DNA from: Myxococcota bacterium
GTDB lineage: Bacteria; Myxococcota_A; UBA9042; PHBI01; JAWLBL01
Direction: 5' to 3'
DNA: 64,000 nt
Assembly: GCA_041687695.1 (NCBI GenBank)
Contig: JAWLBL010000019.1
Span: 110,685 to 174,684 of the forward strand
The notes below the pieces were generated by a model, which made no database searches, was not told the DNA's origin, and was given only the letters and a program-made list of their open reading frames with translations. Positions 27,325-64,000 of the stretch are shown piece after piece; positions within the stretch are counted from its first letter, which is position 1, and each line of letters starts with the position of its first letter. Made by a program: the position numbers and the translations under genes.

Positions 27325-27651
27325 ATGACCGAGACCACGAAGAGGCACCCGCACGCGAAGATCGTCGCCGCCATCATCGCCGCCTTGGTGGCGATCGGCG
27401 GCGGGGTCTACGGGCTGGGCGAGACCGAAGGCGTGACCACGGTGACGACCGCGACCGTGCAGGGCCTGGACGCCCGGGTCGCGGCCAACACGGTGGCGAT
27501 CGCCGAGATCCGTGTCCAACAGGAGGCGGCCAACCAGGTGCTCGTTCGGCTGGACCGGACGATCGAACGCCTGGACGTGACGCTGGCCGAACTCGCCCGC
27601 GTCGTCGCCCGCATGGAGGGGCGCGACGCCATCCTGGGCACGAGCAAGTGA
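27325..27651 (+). CDS. Single-TM coiled-coil protein (holin- or i-spanin-like)
   Basis: N-terminal TM plus coiled coil; GGAGG RBS. Confidence 0.5.
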   Translation: MTETTKRHPHAKIVAAIIAALVAIGGGVYGLGETEGVTTVTTATVQGLDARVAANTVAIAEIRVQQEAANQVLVRLDRTIERLDVTLAELARVVARMEGRDAILGTSK

Positions 27652-28001
27652 AGCGGGTCCTGTTCGCGGCGCTGCTGGCCGGCTGTTCGGTCGACCTGCA
27701 GCGCCGGCCTGACCAGTTCCCCCCGCTCGAGCTGGGCGCCGGGCCATGCACGGTGACGATCGCGTCCGAACACGCGACCGTCACCATCCACCTGGGCGAC
27801 GTGTCCGCGCTGGTCGTCAGAGAGGCGACGGTCCGAGCCCTCAAGGGGCTGGCCGGTCAGGGCCTACAGGTCACGCCGATGATGATCGCACTCGTCGAGG
27901 GGCTCACGATTGCCGGGGTCGACGAGGGGCTCTGCCGGGTCCTCGACAAGGCCCGCAGCCATCTCAACGGCCGACTGGACCTGCTGGTCGAACGACGCTG
28001 A
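27648..28001 (+). CDS. Lipoprotein (o-spanin-like?)
   Basis: MKRVLFAALLAGC lipobox; GTGA overlap. Confidence 0.55.
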   Translation: MKRVLFAALLAGCSVDLQRRPDQFPPLELGAGPCTVTIASEHATVTIHLGDVSALVVREATVRALKGLAGQGLQVTPMMIALVEGLTIAGVDEGLCRVLDKARSHLNGRLDLLVERR

Positions 28002-28087
28002 CGCGGGCTCGACGCTTCCCGCTTGCTCGCGACTAGCGTGTTCCTCTTGAGACCGTTTCCCTAGCGGCCCGCCACAGAGCCTTGCAG

Positions 28088-28260
28088 GCACAGGGCCTAG
28101 TGGTCGGAATGGGGAATTCTGCAACTTCTTGGGTTGACGGCGGCCCATCTAGCCGCCATCGTTGTAAGCCTCCAACGACGACGCGTTCGGCGAAACGAGC
28201 CCTCCGGGGGGAGGGGCGTGCCGACCTCGTTACCGCCTCCGGCCCCAGTGGCCGAAGCGC
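28088..28260 (+). promoter_or_regulatory. Prophage copy of host nrdJ promoter/leader (degenerate NrdR boxes, TTGACG -35, structured RNA)
   Basis: Collinear with 44753-44920; 28173-28223 identical to 44838-44888. Confidence 0.8.
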
Positions 28261-28810
28261 GGCGACGTGTGTTGACCCGTAAGCCTCCCCCACAGCAGGT
28301 TCCAGCCAACACACGAACAGTCCGTCACGGCACGCTTCCCGTTCTGACACGGGGAGGGCAGCACATGCCCGGGCGTAGGTGCTCGGGCCTGACGACGGAA
28401 ACGGAGCAGTGCTCCGTAGCCTCGGTCAGGAGAAGCCACCTCGCCCGAACCAGGGCTGGGTTGCGTTCCGGCAGGTGCGAACCAAGACCAGGAGACAGAG
28501 AACGAACAAGGGGCTGCAACGCAGCCAAGCTACGAAGCAGCCCCGTGAAGACCTAGACCAACCAAAAAATCACCAGAGCTTGCTGGCAACTGCTCAGCGC
28601 GCTGGCCGGCGCGCCGCAGGTTGGCAACCAGGCGTGCGAACAACTCTGTCCAAGGCGTTCGTAGGTCCCGGTCGAGTAGATGTCAAGCGGGCTTGCTGCA
28701 ACCCAGAGACCTGGGGGGTCGGCTGCGTGGGCGTTCCACCGTAGCTGCACCGGTTTCCCGGGTACTGCAGGCCACCTGCAGTACGCCTCCGTGCGTTCCG
28801 CACAAAGGCA
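28170..28810 (+). ncRNA. Candidate long structured RNA or 5' UTR
   Basis: No convincing ORF; dense hairpins (28367-28388, 28401-28417, 28510-28544, 28762-28784, 28791-28803). Confidence 0.45.
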
Positions 28811-28817
28811 TCAAGCC

Positions 28818-28904
28818 ATGGTCGAGTTCCTGTTCGGCATCATCCTCGGCATCATCGCTCGCGACGTGTGGCCCCGTGGCACCCGTCCGCCGGCGAAGAA
28901 GTAG
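28818..28904 (+). CDS. 28-aa hydrophobic peptide MVEFLFGIILGIIARDVWPRGTRPPAKK
   Basis: ATG after AAAGG; hydrophobic helix plus basic tail. Confidence 0.45.
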   Translation: MVEFLFGIILGIIARDVWPRGTRPPAKK

Positions 28905-28925: not shown

Positions 28926-28956
28926 CGGGTTCACGGGGAACGGTCCCGTGAACCCG
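28926..28956. terminator. Perfect 12-bp hairpin between convergent genes
   Basis: CGGGTTCACGGG / CCCGTGAACCCG; no clear U-tract. Confidence 0.5.
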
Positions 28957-28975: not shown

Positions 28976-29287
28976 TCAGCCGCCCCCGACGCGGGTCCCG
29001 CCGCCCTCGTAGCCGTTGCCGACGCCGGTCCCGTTTGCAGCGAAGCCGTTGCCGACGGTGCCTTCGTACCCGACGGTCCCCTTATAGCGGCCGTCGTCGT
29101 CGTAGCCGCCTCCAATCTCGGTTTCCTTCGCGGCGACCGTGAAGCCACCTCGCTCGACGCCGTTGTCGGCGGAGGCGGTGAAGCCGCCGGTGGTTCCGCT
29201 GCTGTCGTGGGAGGTGATCAGGAAGCCACCACCCGAGTAGCCGCCGGTGGCCAGAAGGGTCGCAGCCGCGATGATGATGAGCTTCAT
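28976..29287 (-). CDS. Small secreted Gly-rich protein
   Basis: MKLIIIAAATLLA signal peptide; GAGG RBS. Confidence 0.6.
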   Translation of the reverse strand: MKLIIIAAATLLATGGYSGGGFLITSHDSSGTTGGFTASADNGVERGGFTVAAKETEIGGGYDDDGRYKGTVGYEGTVGNGFAANGTGVGNGYEGGGTRVGGG

Positions 29288-29379: not shown

Positions 29380-30096
29380 TCAGCTGCCCTTGGAACGGTC
29401 AATCTTTGCCTGGAGTGTCGCCCTGCGCTCTCGGCTCCGAGCGGGCTGCACGTAGAAGAACTCCAAGAGGTCATCGAGGACTTGGAGCATGAGCTGAGCC
29501 TCGTTCTCTTCGATGTCGAGGATCTCACCTGTCACGCCGTCGGCCTTCAGGTGAACCGCGATGTTGCCCAGCTGCCGGACGTGGTCCAGTTCCTCGTGGA
29601 GGTGCGCCGGGAACCGCTGTTCGGCGAGCTTCAGGAGCCCGGCAAGGTTGGTCCGAGGCGAGGCGCTGGTGGCCTCGAGCAGGATGGCTTCCATGCACCG
29701 GCGGGAGAGCGCCGCCGAGGCCCGAGGGCTGATGTCGAGGATGGCCCAAGCCTCGCGCCAGTCCTTCGCGATCCCCTCGGGCACGGCCGGGTCTGGGGCG
29801 CGAGAGCGGAAGCGGGGATAGATGACCTGGTCAGGCCAGGGAGTACCGGAAGCGAGACCGATGTCGGCTCCGATGACCAGGATCGGGAAGTCACAGACTG
29901 GACATAGGAATCCGACGAGCGCCCACTCGCTCCGGCCTCGACTGCAGACCCAGTGAAAGGTCAGCGGAACCCACTCGCTCTCCTGCTGCCAGCTCTGGCC
30001 ACCACGGACGCGCATGGGCTCGCCCAGGTTGACCTTCTCTTGACAGTGTGGACAGGTCACCCGCGAGCCCTGATAGTAGACGTTCTCGTCGTTCAT
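29380..30096 (-). CDS. DUF4145 (HEPN-like) protein with N-terminal zinc finger
   Basis: CPHC...CPVC; SPRASAALSRRCME; RQLGNIAVH. Confidence 0.8.
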   Translation of the reverse strand: MNDENVYYQGSRVTCPHCQEKVNLGEPMRVRGGQSWQQESEWVPLTFHWVCSRGRSEWALVGFLCPVCDFPILVIGADIGLASGTPWPDQVIYPRFRSRAPDPAVPEGIAKDWREAWAILDISPRASAALSRRCMEAILLEATSASPRTNLAGLLKLAEQRFPAHLHEELDHVRQLGNIAVHLKADGVTGEILDIEENEAQLMLQVLDDLLEFFYVQPARSRERRATLQAKIDRSKGS

Positions 30097-30260: not shown

Positions 30261-30635
30261 TTGACAGGGTGGGATCTCGCGATCCTCATCAGAGCTATGA
30301 GACCTACCCACGACGTCCCTGCATCCGTGCTCGAGCTGATGGCCCAGCAGACGAGCTGGACCTGGTGCATCGAGGTCCTGACCGGATGGCTCAACAGGAC
30401 CAAGCGCTGCTACACGGTCTACGACGTATACTGCTTCCTGGTCGAGCACAGGCCCGGTGAGGCGGTCGACTACGACTACATCGCCCGTCGCCTCAGCCAG
30501 AGCAGTACGCCCGGCACCTACTACTGGGTGGCCTTCGGTCCCGACCATGAGTCGGCTCGGCAGTACTACGAGGCCCTGCGTGGGCGTCTGTCGCTGGCCG
30601 AGGTCGACGGAGGCGAGCTGTCGCTGACGAACTAG
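30261..30635 (+). CDS. Hypothetical protein (start may be 30297)
   Basis: ORF between the DUF4145 paralogues. Confidence 0.45.
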   Translation: MTGWDLAILIRAMRPTHDVPASVLELMAQQTSWTWCIEVLTGWLNRTKRCYTVYDVYCFLVEHRPGEAVDYDYIARRLSQSSTPGTYYWVAFGPDHESARQYYEALRGRLSLAEVDGGELSLTN

Positions 30636-31333
30636 GTAGCCTTCGAGGTCTTGGCCTTCAGGGCAGCTTGCCGCTGAGCACGCTTGGCCGGCTGGACGTA
30701 GTAGAAGTCCAGCAACTCATCCACGATGGTGAGCAGCGCCTCGGCCTCGTCCTGGTTGATCTCCATGATGGATCCCGTCGTGGAGTCCGACTTGAGATGG
30801 ACTGCGATGTTGCCCATCTTCCGAACCTCGTCGAGGTGCTGTTCGAGGTCTGACGGCAGCGTGGGCCCGACGCTGGTGATCATGTCGACCAGCCGAGTCT
30901 TCGGGTTCTGCTTGCCAGCGTCAACGAGGGTCGCCTCGATGCAGCGACGCGAGAGCGCCGCCGAGGCCCGTGGGCTCAGGTCGAGGATCGCCCATGCCTC
31001 CTGCCAGTCCTTGGCGATGTCGGCAGGTACGACTGGGTCTGGCGCGCGGACTCGAGCGGCAGGGTGGACGATCCGTTCGTCAAGGACTTTCCCACCTGTG
31101 ATGTCGTTTTGCACGGTTCTCAGGACGAGCACGAGTTGATCGCAGACTGGGCAGACGTAACCCCTTAGTTCTTGACGCTGCTGGCTTCTGTTCCGTTGCC
31201 AGGTGAGGAACAAGGACACGAGGGTCTGTCGGTCGCGGTCGTCGAGCGCAAAAACCTGTGTGTATTCGGGTAGGTTGATGGGCTGCTCGCAGTGGGGGCA
31301 GGTAACCCGGGCCTTCGGCTCGTAGCTCGTCAT
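30632..31333 (-). CDS. DUF4145 (HEPN-like) protein with N-terminal zinc finger, paralogue
   Basis: CPHC...CPVC; SPRASAALSRRCIE; RKMGNIAVH. Confidence 0.8.
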   Translation of the reverse strand: MTSYEPKARVTCPHCEQPINLPEYTQVFALDDRDRQTLVSLFLTWQRNRSQQRQELRGYVCPVCDQLVLVLRTVQNDITGGKVLDERIVHPAARVRAPDPVVPADIAKDWQEAWAILDLSPRASAALSRRCIEATLVDAGKQNPKTRLVDMITSVGPTLPSDLEQHLDEVRKMGNIAVHLKSDSTTGSIMEINQDEAEALLTIVDELLDFYYVQPAKRAQRQAALKAKTSKAT

Positions 31334-31455: not shown

Positions 31456-33063
31456 ATGACCGAGCCCACGCAATCGACTGCGCGACGAGCTGTCATCTAC
31501 GCCCGTGTCTCGAGCCAGGGGCAGCGGGACCGCCAGACCATCGAGTCCCAGCTCCGGGTCTTGCCCGAGTTCGTCGAGTCCCGGGGGTGGGAGCTGGTCA
31601 GGCCCACCGACACCTATATAGACGATGGGTTCTCGGCCAAGGCCGGGGGACTCGACGACCTCAAGGGCCGGGCCCAGCTGCTCTCGGATGCCGAGGCGGG
31701 CCTCTTCGACCTGGTGGCGGTGGTCGACCAAGACCGGCTCACCCGATCGGAGGACTTGGTCGAGCGCGGCTACATACTGGGTTCGCTCCAGCGGGCTCAG
31801 ATCCAGATCGCGGTTCAGTCCACCGGCCAGGTGCTCGACCTCTCGAGTTCCGAGGGCGACCTGCACGCCAGCCTCCAGGGGTTCTTCAGCGCCGAGGAGA
31901 ACCGCAAGCGTCGGAAGCGAACTCTCGATGGCAAGCAGACCGCGATCAAGCGTGGCCGTAAGCCCTCCGGCCCAACCCCCTACGGCTACAACTACGATCG
32001 AACCACCGGTACCTGGACCATCGACCAGGACCAGGGTGCGATCGTACGCGAGCTCTTCGAACGGGTCGCTGGCGGCGAGTCCTGCCACAGCCTTGCCAGG
32101 GAGCTGAACGAGCGAGGGGTCCCTCGCCCCAGGAGCGGCGCCTGGCAGCAGGCGCGGGTCAACCAGATCGTCCGCCAGCGCGCCTACATCGGGACCTACA
32201 CGGCCGACAAGAAGAGGAACCTGACCATCGAGGTCCCGAGGATCGTGAGCGACTGGCTGTTCGAGCAGGCCGAGATCGCCCTGCAGGCCAACCGGTTCCA
32301 CCTCAACCCCAAGACCAACCACTACAACCTGGCCCAGGGGATCGGGGTCTGCGGGGTCTGCGGCCAGGACATCCTGCTTACGGGCAACAAGCTCAAGAAG
32401 CGGTACTACGTCTGCCGGTCCAAGAAGGGGCTGGGCAAGGACGTCGAGCGCTGCCCCAACCCGATGCGGCAGGTCGAGCCCACCGACGAGAAGATCTGGG
32501 CGCAGGTCCGCTACGTGCTCGAGCAGCCCGACCTCCTGGAGGGAGCGGTCCAGCTCCGGATCGATCGGGCCAACGAGACCGACTGGGAGGCCGAGCTCAA
32601 GGAGACCGAGTCCAAGCTGGCCGCCATCGATCGCCGGGCCCAGAACGTCCTCAACTCCTACATGAAGGGGTTGATCGCCGACGACGTCTACGAGCAGCAC
32701 CTGGTGTCGACGCAGCGGGACCGAGAGGGGCTGGAGCGCCAGCGCGATCTGGCCAACCAGAACCTGCTGGCCGCCAAGAGGACCGAGCAGGAGACCCGTG
32801 CTCTTCGGGCGACCGTCGAGAAGCTCAAGCAGAACCTCGACACCGCGTCACCAGAAGAGCGCCAGAAGCTCGTCAGGATGCTGATCCCAGGCCGGGACGG
32901 GTACCGGATCACGTTCGAGCAGGACGGGACCCTGACCATCATGGGGATGGTGGATGCCGGGACACCCGCATCGAACAAGGCTGGATCAGGGGAAGGAGAG
33001 GGCGGCTCGGGTGTCTTCCACGATGACGGTGTATCAACCAGCTGCGACAGAAGATCGGGGTGA
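31456..33063 (+). CDS. Large serine recombinase (prophage integrase)
   Basis: YARVSS catalytic motif, DRLTR, PYGY recombinase domain, CGVCG...YYVC zinc ribbon, coiled coil; GGAGG RBS. Confidence 0.95.
33011..33056. other. Putative prophage-host att junction
   Basis: RecA-like translation begins at 33033; GGT-GT-AT-CA-ACC symmetry and flanking TCTTC/GAAGA. Confidence 0.65.
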
Positions 33064-33506
33064 TGTTCGGCAACCCCGAGACGACGACCGGGGGCAACGC
33101 CCTCAAGTTCTACTCGAGCGTCCGCCTGGACATCCGGCGCATCGGGGCGCTCAAGAACGGCGACCAGGCCATCGGCAACCGCACCCGGGTGAAGGTGGCC
33201 AAGAACAAGGTCGCGCCGCCGTTCCAGACCTGCGAGTTCGACATCGTCTACGGACGCGGGATCTGCCAGGCGGGCGAGCTGCTCGACATGGGCGTCGAGG
33301 TCGGCGTCATCGACAAGTCCGGCGCCTGGTACTCGTGGCGCGAGGGGCGCCTGGGCCAGGGGCGCGAGAAGGCGCGCGAGGCCCTGATGGCCGACGAGGC
33401 GCTGTTCCGGACCCTGCGCGCCGAGACGATGGCGCGCCGGCTGGGGCGGCCCGCGCCGGTGGTCGAGGTGGCGGGCGACGACGGCATCGAGGCGCAGGCC
33501 GCCTGA
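33033..33506 (+). pseudogene. recA: RecA C-terminal half, interrupted by the prophage
   Basis: [36 protein letters not shown]...KNKVAPPF...KSGAWYS; in-frame TGA at 33024. Confidence 0.95.
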
Positions 33507-44740: not shown

Positions 44741-44830
44741 TGGCCATATATGGCGCAGCATGTAGTGTCCGGCATGGGTAGTGCACCAACATCTTGGGTT
44801 GACGGCGGCCGAGCGAGTCGCCATCTTAGC
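44741..44830 (+). promoter_or_regulatory. NrdR boxes and sigma70-type promoter of nrdJ
   Basis: GCGCAGCATGTAGTGT (44753-68) and CACCAACATCTTGGGT (44784-99) are 31 bp apart; CCATATATGG at 44744; TTGACG-N17-CATCTT. Confidence 0.75.
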
Positions 44831-45210
44831 AAGCCTTCAACGACGACGCGTTCGGCGAAACGAGCCCTCCGGGGGGAGGGGCGTGCCGGCCTCGTCCGCC
44901 TCCGGCTCCACGGCCGACGAGCGCCTCGGTGCGCTCTCGGTGGGGGCCGACCCGCGAGCGCGACCGCCGCCCGTGGGCGCGCGGACCGTCGAGGGAGCCC
45001 AATCACGACTTTCGCCACCGGCGACCTGCGCGCGGCCCCGGCCGGCGCTCTGACGCCTCGCGCCGAAGCGCCCCACCAGCCTCCGCGACATTCCAGTCAT
45101 CGATTCCGACGCCCGCCGCCGCGCCCGGGCGTCTCGGCGCGAGCGCTGCCACCGGCCCTCGCGCACCCCACATCCGCCTTCGAACCCCGAGCCCCAGGAA
45201 GCGTGACCTC

Positions 45211-48200
45211 ATGAAGATCGCCCGTCGCTACACCAAGAAAGGCCAGGATCCCTTCGCCCGCCTCGGCTTCACGACCCGCGCCTCGCGCATCACCAACCCC
45301 GACGGCAGCGTGGTCTTCGAGGCCCCGGAGGTGGTGGTCCCCGAGGGCTGGTCGCAGGTCGCGGTCGACGTGCTGGCGCAGAAGTACTTCCGCAAGGCCG
45401 GCGTCCCGGCGCGTCTGAAGGCGGTCGAGGAGGAGGGCGTGCCGGCCTGGCTGCAGCGCTCGGTGCCGGACGAGGCGGCCCTGGCCAAGCTCGACGAGGC
45501 CGAGCGGTCGACCAGCGAGCGCGACAGCCGGCAGGTCTTCGGGCGCCTGGCCGGCTGCTGGACCTACTGGGGCTGGCGGCACGGCTACTTCGCGACCGAG
45601 GAGGACGCGCGGGCGTTCCACGACGAGCTGTGCTTCATGCTGGCCAATCAGATGGTCGCGCCCAACTCGCCCCAGTGGTTCAACACGGGGCTGCACTGGG
45701 CCTACGGCATCGACGGCCCGGCGCAGGGCCACTGGTACGTCGACCCGAAGACGGGCGAGGCCAAGCCCAGCGAGACGGCCTACGCCCACCCGCAGCCGCA
45801 CGCCTGCTTCATCCAGTCGGTGGGCGACGATCTCGTGAACGAGGGCGGCATCATGGACCTGTGGGTCCGCGAGGCGCGCCTGTTCAAGTACGGCTCGGGC
45901 ACCGGGTCGAACTTCTCGCACCTGCGGGGCGAGGGCGAGCCCCTGTCGGGCGGCGGGCGCTCGAGCGGCCTGATGAGCTTCCTCAAAATAGGCGACCGCG
46001 CCGCCGGCGCCATCAAGTCGGGCGGCACCACGCGCCGCGCCGCCAAGATGGTGGTGCTCGACGTCGACCACCCGGACGTCGAGCAGTTCATCAACTGGAA
46101 GGTGCTCGAGGAGCAGAAGGTCGCGAGCCTGGTCCTGGGCTCGCGCCTGAACAACAAGCACCTCAACGCCATCCTGAAGGCCATCGGCGAGGCCAAGCGC
46201 CGCGGGATGAACGGCGAGTCCACCAAGGCCCGCAGCAACCCCGACCTGGCCAAGGCGCTGCGTGACGCGCGCGCCGCGGGCGTGCCCGACAACTACATCC
46301 ACCGCGTGATGCAGCTGGGCGAGCAGGGCATCACCGAGGTCTACTTCCCCGAGTACGACACCAACTGGGACTCCGAGGCCTACTACACGGTCAGCGGCCA
46401 GAACTCGAACAACTCGGTCCGCGTCAACAACGCCTTCCTCGAGGCCGTCGAGCGCGGCGAGGACTGGACGCTGCGCCGCCGCACGGACGGCAAGGTCGCC
46501 AAGGTCGTCAAGGCGCGCAGCCTCTGGGAGGAGATCGCCTACGCCGCCTGGAGCTGCGCCGACCCCGGGCTGCAGTTCGACACCACCATCAACGACTGGC
46601 ACACCTGCCCGAACGACGGCCGCATCAACGCGTCCAACCCGTGCTCCGAGTACATGTTCCTCGACGACACGGCGTGCAACCTCGCCAGCGCGAACCTGAT
46701 GAAGTTCCGCACCGAGGACGGCCGCTTCGACATCGAGAGCTTCGAGCACGCCTGCCGCCTGTGGACCGTCGTGCTCGAGATCTCGGTCCTGATGGCCCAG
46801 TTCCCGTCGCGCCGCATCGCCGAGCTGAGCTACGAGTTCCGCACGCTGGGCCTGGGCTACGCCAACATCGGCACCCTGCTGATGGTCCAGGGCATCCCCT
46901 ACGACAGCGAAGAGGCCCTGGCCGTCTGCGGCGCCATCAGCGCCATCATGACCGGCGTGTCGTACGCGACCAGCGCCGAGCTGGCCAAGGAGCTGGGGCC
47001 CTTCCCGGGCTACCAGCGCAACCGCGAGCCGATGCTGCGCGTCATCCGCAACCACCGCCGGGCCGCCTACAACGCCCCTCGCTCGGGCTACGAGGGCCTC
47101 AGCACGGCGCCCAAGGGCATCGACGGCGTCAAGGCCCCCGCCGATCTGCTGCAGGCCGCCAAGAAGGCCTGGGATCGGGCGCTCGAGCTGGGCGAAAAGC
47201 ACGGCTACCGCAACGCCCAGGTCACGGTCATCGCCCCGACCGGCACCATCGGCCTGGTGATGGACTGCGACACGACCGGCATCGAGCCGGACTTCGCCCT
47301 GGTCAAGTTCAAGAAGCTGGCCGGCGGCGGCTACTTCAAGATCATCAACCAGTCGGTCCCCGAGGCGCTGGCCAACCTGGGCTACTCGCCCGAGCAGGTG
47401 CAGGCCATCATCACCTACTGCGTGGGCACCAAGACCCTGGTCGGCGCCCCGCACGTCAACCGCGACGCCCTGGCCGCCCGGGGCTTTCCGGCCGAGGTGC
47501 TCGACCGCATCGAGCGCGAGCTCGGCCGCAGCTTCGAGCTGGGCTTCGCCTTCAACCGCTGGACGGTGGGCGACTCGGTCATCACCGATCGCCTGGGCGT
47601 CCCGGCGACCGAGCTCGACAAGCCCGGCTTCGATCTGCTGACCGCCCTGGGCTTTTCGGCCGACCAGGTCCGCGAGGCGAGCGACGTCATCTGCGGCCGC
47701 ATGACGGTCGAGGGCGCGCCCTTCCTGCAGGCCAAGCACCTGCCGGTCTTCGACTGCGCCAACAAATGCGGCCGCTACGGCACGCGCTACATCCACCCCG
47801 AGGCGCACATCCGCATGATGGCCGCCGCGCAGCCGTTCCTGTCGGGCGCCATCTCCAAGACCATCAACCTGCCCAACCACGCCACCGTCGAAGAGGTGCA
47901 GCAGGCCTACCTGCTCAGCTGGAAGCTGGGCGTCAAGGCCATCGCCCTGTACCGCGACGGCTCCAAGCTCTCGCAGCCGCTCAGCTCGTCGAGCGGCGAG
48001 TCGCTCGAGGATCTGCTGGCCGAGGTCGCCCCCGAGCCGGCGCCCCCGCCCTCGCCGGTCGAGCGCGCCGAGCGCATCGTCGTCAAGTACCTGGCCAAGC
48101 GCCGCAAGCTCCCCTACCGCCGCGCGGGTTACACCCAGAAGGCGGTCATCGCCGGGCACAACGTCTACCTGCGCACGGGCGAGTACGAGGACGGCACCCT

Positions 48201-48861
48201 GGGTGAGATCTTCCTCGACATGCACAAGGAGGGCGCGGCCTTCCGCAGCATGATGAACTGCTTCGCCATCGCCGTGTCGCTGGGCCTGCAGCACGGGGTG
48301 CCGCTCGAGGAGTACGTGGACGCCTTCCTGTTCACGCGCTTCGAGCCCAACGGCATCGTGCAGGGCAACCCCTACATCAAGATGACCACCTCGATCATCG
48401 ACTACATCTTCCGCGAGCTGGCGGTGACCTACCTGCACCGCCACGATCTGGCGCAGGTCAAGCCCGAGGGGTCCGCCATCGACGACGTGCGGTCCGGCGC
48501 GGACGGCGGCGGCCACGTGGGGGCGACGGCGCTGGTGCCGCGCACCGACCGGCTGCACCTGGGCGGCGGCATGGCGGCGGGCGCGGCCTCGGTCGGGCGC
48601 GTCGTGCAGGCGACCCCGGCGCTGGCGGTCGAGTCCGGCGGTCAGGTCGTCGCCGGCGGCGGTCAGGCCGCAGCGGCGGGCGCGGCCGTGCTGCCGGCCC
48701 TGGCGGCCGGCCCGCTGACCGGCCCGGGGGACGCGGCGCTGATGGCGCGGCTCAAGGGCTACGAGGGCGACGCCTGCCCCGACTGCGGCCACATGACGCT
48801 GGTCCGCAACGGCACCTGCCTCAAGTGCGTCACCTGCGGCTCGACCACCGGCTGCAGCTGA
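45211..48861 (+). CDS. nrdJ: Class II (B12-dependent) ribonucleotide reductase
   Basis: [36 protein letters not shown] domain, C-terminal CPDC/CVTC. Confidence 0.97.
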
Positions 48862-53037: not shown

Positions 53038-53084
53038 GGGGCTGAGGGCGAAACCACTCCGGACGCTCGGCGAAGCGCCCGAGG

Positions 53085-53668
53085 TGGTTCGAACCACTTA
53101 TCCCGGCTCGGCGAACCGCCCGAAGTGGTTCGAACCAGCCGAGGCCGAGCTCGGAGTCGCCTTGAATGGGTTCGAACCAGCCGAGGCCGAGCTCGGAGTC
53201 GCCCCCGTTTGGTTCGAACCAATCGGGGCCGAGCTCGGAGTCGCCTTGCATTGGTTCGAACCAGCCGGAGGTCGAGCTCGGAGTCGCCTTGCATTGGTTC
53301 GAACCAGCCGGAGGCCGAGCTCGGAGTCGCCTTTGATGGGTTCGAACCAGCCGGGGCCGAGCTCGGAGTCGCCTTGCATTGGTTCGAACCAGCCAAAGGC
53401 CGAGCTCGGAGTCGCCTGGCAGTGGTTCGAACCCATCGAGCCCGAGCTCGGAGTCGCCCCCGTTTGGTTCGAACCAGCCGGAGGCCGAGCTCGGAGTCGC
53501 CTTGCATTGGTTCAGACCCATCGAGGCCGAGCTCGGAGCCGCCCGTGATGGGTTCAGACCCGCCGAGGCCGAGCTCGGAGTCGCCCGTGATGGGTTCAGA
53601 CCCGTCGAGGCCGAGCTCGGAGTCGCCCGTGATTGGTTCAGACCCGTCGAGGCCGAGCTCGGAGTCGC
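53085..53668. repeat. Tandem array of 13 units of 42-43 bp (GGTTCGAACC...GCCGAGCTCGGAGTCGCC)
   Basis: GAGCTCGGAG at 53147, 53189, 53231 ... 53655. Confidence 0.9.
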
Positions 53669-53721
53669 TCGGCGGCGGTTTCCACTGGCGCGGCCACGTG
53701 GCGGGGTTATCGTTCGCGCCC

Positions 53722-54852: not shown

Positions 54853-54954
54853 GGGGCCACGGGGCGTGCCCGTCTCGAGCCTCGAAGCGCCGCGAGCTTT
54901 GCAAACCCACGAGCCGTCGTGAGCGAGGGCACTCCAGGTGGCGTGACGCCGTCG

Positions 54955-55120
54955 CCGAAGGCGGCCTTGGAGTGCTCCAGCTTGCTGGAGCCCCAGCACC
55001 GGCGGCTTGCCGCCGGGATCTGGCCGCCAGACCCGGCGCAGCAAGCTGCGCCGCATCGGGGCTCCGGCAAGCCGGAGCACTCCGGTAGGGCTGTAGCGAC
55101 ACCCTCTTCCAGCCGGCCGG
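54955..55120. repeat. REP-like palindromic element, homologous to the 209-bp unit at 63205-64000
   Basis: GGAGTGCTCC...CGGCGGCTTGCCGCCG...GGCGCAGCAAGCTGCGCC...GGAGCACTCC. Confidence 0.75.
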
Positions 55121-62714: not shown

Positions 62715-63100
62715 GGCGATCCCAGGTCGGGGCCGGCTGGAAGCCGGCGATCCCAGGGGGGGCTGGTCGCGCTGGTGGAGTGCCCGCGCTCGCGCGGGCT
62801 CGCTGGATCGCGCCGCTTGCGGCGCCCCGAACCGTGGCCGAACAGCCGGCTGGAAGCCGGCGATCCCAGGGGGGCTGGTCGCGCTGGTGGAGTGCCCGCG
62901 CTCGCGCGGGCTCGCTGGATCGCGCCGCTTGCGGCGCCCCGAACCGTGGGCCGATCAGCCGGCTGGAAGCCGGCGATCCCAGGGGGGCTGGTCGCGCTGG
63001 TGGAGTGCCCGCGCTCGCGCGGGCTCGCTGGATCGCGCCGCTTGCGGCGCCCCGAACCGTGGGCCGATCAGCCGGCTGGAAGCCGGCGATCCCAGGCTGG
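62715..63100. repeat. Three tandem 113-bp REP-like units
   Basis: CTGGAAGCCGGCGATCCCAG at 62737, 62850, 62963, 63076. Confidence 0.9.
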
Positions 63101-63199
63101 GGCCGGCGCGGCTCCGGACTGCACGAGCTCGCTCGTGCTCGTGGGTCGCGCAGCTCGCTGCGCGCGATGTCCTGTGTTTTCAACCGGTTTGGCATTGGG

Positions 63200-64000
63200 G
63201 CCGGCTGGAAGCCGGCGATCCCAGGCTGGGGCCGGCTGGAAGAGGGTGTCGTGTTGATGCCGGCGGAGGCGGCCTTGGAGTGCTCCGGCTTGCCGGAGCC
63301 CCGGCCCCGGCGGCTTGCCGCCGGGAGCTGGCCGCCAAACCCGGCGCAGCAAGCTGCGCCGGATGGGGGCTCCACCAAGGTGGAGCACTCCGGTTGGCCT
63401 TCTGTGACAGCGCCTGGAAGCCGGCGATCCCAGGCTGGGGCCGGCTGGAAGAGGGTGTCGTGTTGATGCCGGCGGAGGCGGCCTTGGAGTGCTCCGGCTT
63501 GCCGGAGCCCCGGCCCCGGCGGCTTGCCGCCGGGAGCTGGCCGCCAAACCCGGCGCAGCAAGCTGCGCCGGATGGGGGCTCCACCAAGGTGGAGCACTCC
63601 GGTTGGCCTTCTGTGACAGCGCCTGGAAGCCGGCGATCCCAGGCTGGGGCCGGCAGGAAGAGGGTGTCGTGTTGATGCCGGCGGAGGCGGCCTTGGAGTG
63701 CTCCGGCTTGCCGGAGCCCCGGCCCCGGCGGCTTGCCGCCGGGATCTGGCCGCAAACCCGGCGCAGCAAGCTGCGCCGGATGGGGGCTCCACCAAGGTGG
63801 AGCACTCCGGTTGGCCTTCTGTGACAGCGCCTGGAAGCCGGCGATCCCAGGCTGGGGCCGGCAGGAAGAGGGTGTCGTGTTGATGCCGGCGGAGGCGGCC
63901 TTGGAGTGCTCCGGCTTGCCGGAGCCCCGGCCCCGGCGGCTTGCCGCCGGGATCTGGCCGCAAACCCGGCGCAGCAAGCTGCGCCGGATGGGGGCTCCAC
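63200..64000. repeat. About 3.8 tandem 208-209-bp palindromic REP-like units, running off the window
   Basis: Units start at 63205, 63414, 63623, 63831. Confidence 0.9.

Follow-up and report, generated by a model that had tools for sequence, protein, structure and literature searches.

Why does a prophage carry a copy of the promoter and 5' leader of its host's ribonucleotide reductase (RNR) gene, without the gene itself? The question is raised by a window of 64,000 nucleotides, the whole stretch of DNA analysed here, which is part of contig C19 in a genome (G000) of 7.97 Mb that is 99% complete and divided among 63 contigs. The host locus has the following features.

44741..44799, plus strand: host NrdR operator, with boxes 0 (at 44741), 1 (44753) and 2 (44784)
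44799..45210, plus strand: nrdJ promoter and leader of about 377 nt, the source of the copy, divergent from smpB
45211..48861, plus strand: nrdJ, class II B12-dependent ribonucleotide reductase

nrdJ is the sole class I or class II reductase found in the genome, no class III reductase was found there, and nrdR is present, on contig C4 near 238.7 kb. The prophage is about 35.3 kb long, carries terminase, capsid, tail and large serine integrase genes, and is inserted in recA. The 5' half of recA lies at C19:107859-108425 and the 3' half starts at window position 33033, with an ATCAAC core common to both; a second recA, on contig C27, is intact. The prophage landmarks are these.

C19:108411, 2.27 kb left of the window: attL
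27325..28001, plus strand: last late genes upstream of the copy, a weak match to an Rz-like spanin (E 0.009) and a predicted lipoprotein
31456..33063, plus strand: large serine integrase, at the right end of the prophage
33033..33038, plus strand: attR core ATCAAC, followed by the 3' half of recA

The copy sits after the last late genes and before two DUF4145 genes and the integrase. The first-pass annotation had described it as a promoter and 5' leader copied from nrdJ while the gene itself was left behind, and this is borne out, with no RNR detected in the prophage.

The two DUF4145 genes (29380-30096 and 30632-31333) are paralogous (45% identical), share N-terminal CxxC motifs and are possible defence genes. 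In the left arm by attL (L069, C19:108683-110935), a row of ORFs looks like a restriction-modification cassette; from their translations we take them to be Vsr-like, cytosine methylase-like and endonuclease-like. A complete prophage also interrupts recA in G307, a genome of another family, which indicates that recA-targeting prophages recur in the phylum. recA is split there (L060:7638-9870, L083:13551-13982) at a point similar to that seen here (31456-33506, L069:8200-8430), and the serine integrases are 40% identical. Two further prophage regions of G000 (C1:1-10500 and C9:150000-180000) have related tail genes, and neither carries a copy of the nrdJ promoter. Elsewhere in the window, 53084-53690 holds about 14 tandem REP-like repeats of 42-43 nt around the palindrome TGGTTCGAACCA, with similar units on contig C5, and 62732-64000 and 54937-55117 hold REP/BIME-like tandem intergenic repeats of 113 nt and 209 nt and a dispersed copy.

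The prophage segment and the host segment are collinear over 28088-28256 and 44753-44918, as claimed earlier, with 29 differences in 170 columns of the gapped alignment (83% identity); the ungapped repeat, 28087-28230 against 44752-44895, is 84% identical. The copies sit on the same 175-kb contig, 16.7 kb from each other and in direct orientation, and each has unique flanks. On the phage side the shared elements are as follows.

28088..28103, plus strand: copy of NrdR box 1, weakened; C4, T11 and G13 kept, AT core 3/8 against 5/8 in the host
28119..28134, plus strand: copy of NrdR box 2, near intact, with A8T; 15-bp linker from box 1
28134..28162, plus strand: captured promoter P1, sigma-A-type, TTGACG-17-CATCGT; in both copies an inverted repeat forms the spacer
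28173..28223, plus strand: identical block, equal to host 44838-44888, within a predicted long interrupted hairpin (28178-28230)
28240..28254, plus strand: second common hairpin (host 44903-44916); homology stops at about 28256

The 51-nt block is exact, as had been reported, and when the mismatch positions were shuffled 100,000 times, an identical run of at least 51 nt appeared 19 times. The copied stretch is no dispersed repeat. Both blastn and a covariance model find just two copies in the genome; the second gives a blastn E of 1e-44, and the other matches to the stretch, among the matches listed, have E values of at least 0.1. The copy is also the sole intergenic host match of the prophage among blastn matches at E<1e-5. 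The promoter layout is kept as described previously, with the -35 element TTGACG at 28134 (host 44799), a 17-nt spacer and a -10 element at 28157 that reads CATCGT (CATCTT at 44822 in the host). A generic sigma-70 scan scored neither copy as a promoter. Promoter status is argued instead from the nrdJ loci of other genomes of the order, 11 of 16 of which have TTGAC-N17-CA/TA directly behind an NrdR-like box, and from similar elements at tRNA/tmRNA genes. The same 11 loci indicate that operator and promoter are conserved across the order.

With the start of P1 placed at about 28168 (the -10 element plus 6 nt), the transcribed part differs at 2 of 62 positions and the promoter at 21 of 81 (Fisher p=1.6e-4), in agreement with the earlier claim that the former is more conserved. 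Phage/host identity is 0.97 in the leader and 0.74 in the promoter. Orthologous host pairs show the reverse order: in 5 of 5 within-genus pairs, 3 of which come from one genus and are hence not independent, the promoter is 0.80-0.91 identical and the leader 0.65-0.84. Ordinary leader constraint therefore does not explain the block, whose identity would require either selection on the RNA sequence or recent gene conversion. Of the earlier suggestion that the RNA is under selection, the excess conservation stands; selection and recent conversion fit these data alike. In the promoter the -35 element is exact, the -10 element matches at 5/6 positions and the 17-bp spacing is kept, and linker, spacer and discriminator differ at 11/38 sites. 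Both stem changes in the common hairpins preserve pairing (U-A/U-G and C-G/U-G), and no compensatory double change was found in them. The shared block folds no better than shuffles (z -0.7), and the fold z of the host leader is +1.2.

The operator has changed in a more particular way. Divergence of the NrdR boxes had been noticed before and amounts to nine differences across boxes 1 and 2. Host box 0 (44741-44756), missed by the first-pass annotation, is the best match of all, with six of six conserved positions, and is absent from the phage copy. NrdR requires two boxes (PMC13584703). For their layout we used two 16-bp boxes with a linker of 15-16 (or 26-27) bp, and the phage boxes at 28088 and 28119, 15 bp apart, are so arranged. 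The sequence expected is C4 and G13 in each box, together with A or T at position 6 and T11; C4, T11 and G13 are kept in both, and box 1 has G6, as host box 1 does. According to PMC13584703, A6G in both boxes weakens in vitro binding 4-10-fold, A8T is tolerated in vitro, and the lower limit for AT between C4 and G13 is about 63%, though a 4/8 mutant still bound. Phage box 1 falls below that limit at 3/8 (box 2 has 6/8), and the box-pair pattern of the same source is found in the host, via boxes 0 and 2, and not in the phage copy. All nine differences in boxes 1 and 2 spare positions 4, 6, 11 and 13 (p about 0.047), which counts against a simple loss of NrdR function. The proposal that the phage copy titrates NrdR as a decoy is poorly supported under the two-box rule, with box 0 missing, box 1 poor in AT and the pair pattern broken. 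The phage operator is predicted to confer weaker, perhaps residual, NrdR repression and to make a poor decoy; with NrdR control weakened, P1 is probably leakier or more readily induced than the host promoter. In another member of the order (L081, G009:C289:16423), an NrdR-box-like sequence and a TTGAC promoter precede a lipoprotein-like gene that does not encode an RNR.

A conserved riboswitch or aptamer in the leader, also envisaged earlier, was not supported. Rfam gave no match at gathering score in the window, with chance-level matches only at E<=10. The nrdJ leaders of 16 order loci align only within genera (one further match, 27 nt, has an E of 0.01) and are unrelated between families. 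A two-copy covariance model matched 1 of 106 other class genomes, inside a coding region, so that no true hit was obtained, and it gave nothing better than E 0.15 on 27 selected loci. None of the comparison genomes is from the same family or genus and the result bears on the wider order and class; the motif is possibly restricted to the family. Other identities were rejected as well. No tRNA or tmRNA identity was found for the copied stretch, and the genome encodes its 6S RNA on a different contig. Rfam lends no support to a likeness with c-di-GMP riboswitches, cobalamin riboswitches or c4-type RNAs. The 140-aa frame across the block (28134-28556) matched no family, and a search for a LexA box in the block gave at best 7-8-nt matches to lexA and recA upstream regions. 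Among host leaders, a long 5' hairpin is conserved in those of genus g6 (L011, L018 and L021), where it shows an apparent compensatory change and carries the motif GANACGA in a bulge. GANACGA recurs in the leaders of G010 and G000, which hints weakly at a 5' architecture common to them.

What the captured promoter now heads is a stretch peculiar to the phage.

28257..28817, plus strand: phage-specific structured non-coding stretch, beginning where host homology ends
28490..28652, minus strand: predicted antisense RNA of about 95-160 nt, a three-way junction and then a hairpin with a pyrimidine tail
28658..28686, minus strand: convergent promoter P2, TTGACA-17-TACGAA
28818..28904, plus strand: 28-aa ORF with hydrophobic N-terminal half, basic tail, net charge +3 and GC3 0.90; predicted ribosome-binding site (RBS) sequestered
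28926..28956, no strand assigned: perfect 12-bp hairpin separating the peptide ORF from the secreted-protein ORF that converges on it

Past 28256 the phage RNA and the remainder of the host leader are unrelated. None of 20 shuffles folds as well as the region 28165-28822 (z -3.5); nine prophage control stretches, on both strands, range from z -2.4 to +1.5. Two 8-nt segments, 28284-28291 and 28328-28335, are able to pair with the 3' arm of the block. Two such block complements in the next 144 nt are unexpected against shuffles (P=0.011), but pairing between the block and its downstream sequence loses significance when all of the region is considered (P=0.08) and has none when judged by duplex energy (P=0.16-0.34). 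Two repeated motifs were also seen: a 10-nt motif ending in CCTCC occurs three times (28164-28173, 28279-28288 and 28781-28790), and CCTCC itself, which resembles an anti-Shine-Dalgarno sequence, has 5 occurrences in 28161-28820, where shuffles predict 0.9.

P2 resembles promoters upstream of the genome's tRNA/tmRNA genes, where a permissive pattern gave 22 matches from 61 genes. Terminator-like sites on its predicted RNA lie at 28591-28568 and 28526-28512. Structure in 28652-28490 is biased to the minus strand (z -5.0, 9 G-U pairs) over the plus strand (z -3.1, 1 G-U pair). The predicted antisense RNA covers a stretch 165-330 nt ahead of the peptide ORF, and its overlap depends on P1 RNA reaching that ORF. 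The 28-aa peptide has a 13-residue Kyte-Doolittle mean of up to 2.5 over a hydrophobic stretch of only about 14-18 aa, and as predicted it has the profile of a type I toxin: an ORF of less than 60 aa, hydrophobic, with a putative transmembrane helix. PHROGs gave no match for the peptide or for the 74-aa frame, and Pfam none for the latter; no homologue of the peptide was found, the 3 representative-library matches covering residues 4-35 of the 74-aa frame. The 12-bp hairpin is the likely end of the unit; in the terminator scan it was unscored and has no U-run. Converging on the peptide ORF is a glycine-rich, secreted-type ORF of 103 aa (28976-29287, minus strand), for which an Atlas search gave scores all under 0.9 and a sub-threshold resemblance to small beta-barrel proteins. 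Taken together, 28257-28904 and P2 form a candidate for type I toxin-antitoxin (TA)-like moron anatomy.

Starting from the observed duplication, its context, its conservation pattern and the predicted structures and promoters, the reading we tentatively prefer, with slightly less than even confidence, is that a captured nrdJ promoter-leader heads a type-I-TA-like moron under weakened NrdR control. A neighbouring host piece of about 170 bp, with NrdR boxes 1 and 2, the promoter and the first two leader hairpins, would have been captured. P1 would drive a long structured RNA ending in the 28-aa membrane peptide, and P2 a cis-antisense RNA that restrains the P1 RNA in type I TA fashion. The new RNA would have kept the captured 5' hairpins as its 5' domain, their identity possibly renewed by recombination with the host copy. 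We infer the transcription, translation, toxicity and NrdR binding of the unit, and likewise in which direction and by what route the capture took place. The first-pass annotation had offered a similar idea, a captured nucleotide-sensing switch rewired to the downstream RNA or peptide; the rewiring is near our preferred reading, but the sole supported nucleotide sensor is the weakened NrdR operator in the DNA.

Several lines of evidence favour this moron. The promoter core is kept while linker, spacer and discriminator have drifted, and the box changes avoid the critical positions. The position between lysis genes and integrase is typical, with the 12-bp hairpin closing the unit. The downstream fold is strong, the P2 match is strong and the antisense structure is strand-biased. 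The ORF has a coding-like GC3 and a type-I-toxin-like profile, stem changes keep pairing, block complements occur downstream, and the donor is close to attR. On the other side, loop and bulge identity is unexplained, compensatory change is lacking and the block itself does not fold unusually well. The 5' UTR of about 650 nt is long, the antisense RNA is distant from the ORF, the peptide has no homologue and a short hydrophobic stretch, and block-downstream pairing is weak over the whole region.

The origin of the copy can be approached from the position of the donor, which is 11,715 bp from attR; only 0.3% of the genome is as close to either prophage end. In lateral transduction, the first headful is packaged from the prophage pac site into the adjacent chromosome, and for P22 it is about 105% (PMC8575938). 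The ORF before the large terminase gene is taken as the small terminase by position only, and the donor lies at 101.6-103.7% of genome length from positions in or near this ORF. It is thus close to where the first in-situ headful would end, a match that may be coincidence. If DNA ends fell near the nrdJ promoter, they would open a way to capture, from host to prophage, and to later conversion; aberrant excision would serve equally as a capture route.

The copy was sought widely. Exact-pattern scans gave 0 matches in viral sequences, 0 and 0 in metagenomes and 0 in species genomes. The box and promoter pattern had 6 viral matches, all inside ORFs and taken as chance. By blastn there were only 2 weak Thermus matches (E 0.2) among phages, none among plasmids and none in 17 other order genomes; 4 of 40 relatives gave merely 32-46-nt matches near E 1e-3, and 1 of 106 class genomes gave a 39-nt match inside a gene. 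No close phage relative was found by terminase or lipoprotein, the best terminase relatives being 35-38% identical. The C1 prophage fragment has the adjacent lipoprotein gene in common (51%), followed directly by a methylase-like ORF. In prophage regions of G307, G021, G022 and G125 the respective host's RNR promoter is not duplicated (best match 22 nt, E 0.007), where the same test recovers the copy in G000 at E 3e-47. The last three of these regions were chosen by related tail proteins, are 39.5-80 kb each and are maybe not whole prophages, and the second RNR of G307, for which no box pair was found, was left out of the test. It had been proposed that absence from related phages would speak against the feature; the copy is absent from the distant prophages examined, and no close relative was found to compare. 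It is a single case so far, in one genome.

An alternative, which we regard as unlikely, is that the phage RNA acts in trans on host nrdJ, either as a sense RNA sponging a protein or sRNA with affinity for the nrdJ 5' hairpin, an RNA version of the earlier decoy idea, or through P2 read-through into an RNA with a 3' end complementary to nrdJ mRNA over its first ~90 nt. Such action would bring selection to stay identical to the host. Near-identity does set in only a few bases from the inferred start site, inverting the host pattern, and if the second loop is set aside, each of the three substitutions in the transcribed part would still allow a G-U pair between phage antisense and host mRNA. The two strands of 28167-28652 also fold almost equally well (z -3.2 for minus, -2.9 for plus), and nrdJ is the only RNR found, with none detected in the prophage. 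However, a scan of the host leader found no convincing antisense promoter, the two terminator-like sites stand between P2 and the block, a DNA-level NrdR decoy fails the two-box rule, and four distantly related prophage-bearing genomes have no copy of their own RNR promoter. We know of no factor that binds the nrdJ leader, which also counts against action in trans. There are partial precedents: RNR leaders can lower mRNA level and stability (PMC12528414), and lambda PreS raises dnaN translation (10.1101/2024.10.31.621285).

We also give rather low probability to a neutral or near-neutral capture in which a recent gene-conversion tract produced the 51-62-nt identity, the downstream RNA and peptide, if real, being independent of the block. 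Copies in direct orientation on one chromosome at such short distance are suited to this, a single tract would account for a sharp run without covariation, and the feature appeared in no other genome, virus or metagenome in the pattern searches. Against it, the promoter core and critical NrdR positions are preserved while neutral sites have drifted by about 29%, and the edge of the tract coincides with the inferred start site.

That the copy is a relic or alternative attachment site is a poor prospect. An ancestor would have integrated in the nrdJ leader via the block, supplying a replacement promoter and 5' hairpins that kept the essential gene on, and its integrase module would later have been swapped for the recA-targeting one. 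This would give a diverged but intact promoter/operator and a conserved 5' end in one step, the copy is 3.2 kb from the integrase, and an element-supplied promoter for an interrupted operon is described for SpyCIM5 (PMC3430984). But the only integrase identified, a serine recombinase, uses a 6-bp core in recA, and no element occurs in the smpB-nrdJ interval at the 11 of 16 order loci where smpB adjoins nrdJ. Finally, consensus bleed between two diverged copies of a sequence found on one contig only, in a 63-contig assembly, is scarcely credible as the cause of the block, given the unique flanks, the 29 differing columns of 170, some in the transcribed part, and the inference that repeat collapse cannot yield such a duplication.

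As a captured promoter-leader heading a moron, the unit can be compared with known systems. Morons are accessory genes with their own promoter and terminator (PMC8575938, PMC6469090), and like prophage morons this would be a self-contained unit between lysis genes and integrase with a host-type promoter and a closing hairpin. Unlike them, its promoter is traceable to one essential host gene, 11.7 kb beyond the attachment site, and brings repressor boxes and a 5' leader. With membrane type I TA loci such as the prophage bsrG/SR4 and the LexA-repressed tisB/IstR-1, as described in PMC8309996, it shares a hydrophobic ORF of less than 60 aa and, as predictions here, a sequestered RBS, an antisense RNA that would overlap the toxin mRNA and an operator for a host DNA-metabolism repressor. 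It differs in having NrdR in place of LexA, a leader of about 650 nt and a peptide without homologue whose toxin status is putative. PeSL cassettes of T4-type phages (PMC2839356) likewise place a promoter and stem-loop ahead of non-essential genes, as repeats that can recombine, but by that account they are multi-copy phage cassettes whose stem-loops are terminators, whereas here there is one phage copy with a host-gene partner. Lambda PreS on dnaN (10.1101/2024.10.31.621285) offers a parallel in that a phage RNA may target a host gene for DNA synthesis here too; PreS is described as pairing in trans via Hfq, whereas ours is a sense-orientation copy of the host leader whose action on nrdJ is putative. 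SpyCI islands in mutL (PMC3430984) also interrupt a DNA-repair gene and carry a promoter serving host genes. There a cryptic promoter inside int drives the interrupted operon, while the host-derived copy here currently drives no host gene. In the largely openly accessible literature, surveyed at listing level, we found no phage copy of an NrdR-controlled promoter or leader and no NrdR-type nucleotide-pool-sensing trigger for a phage toxin.

A bolder interpretation, which we consider improbable, is that a host dNTP sensor has been wired to a phage output: NrdR would release P1 at low dATP to make a membrane toxin, and/or the RNA would tune nrdJ. The fall in dATP might come, for instance, under attack by another phage. 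It is similarly doubtful that the RNA domain is a sense decoy or P2 antisense kept host-matched by recombination.

The origin of a moron promoter is rarely traceable, and here donor and copy lie in one contig, so that one can read base by base how the promoter was captured, how repression was lost and how the RNA part was retained. If neither NrdR gating nor action on nrdJ is true, this would be a neat but ordinary capture event in one genome. If NrdR still gates P1, a phage toxin would have a trigger that senses the nucleotide pool, much as tisB is gated by LexA. Should one or the other RNA strand act on nrdJ, a phage without a detected RNR would steer its host's only dNTP source by means of a copied leader.
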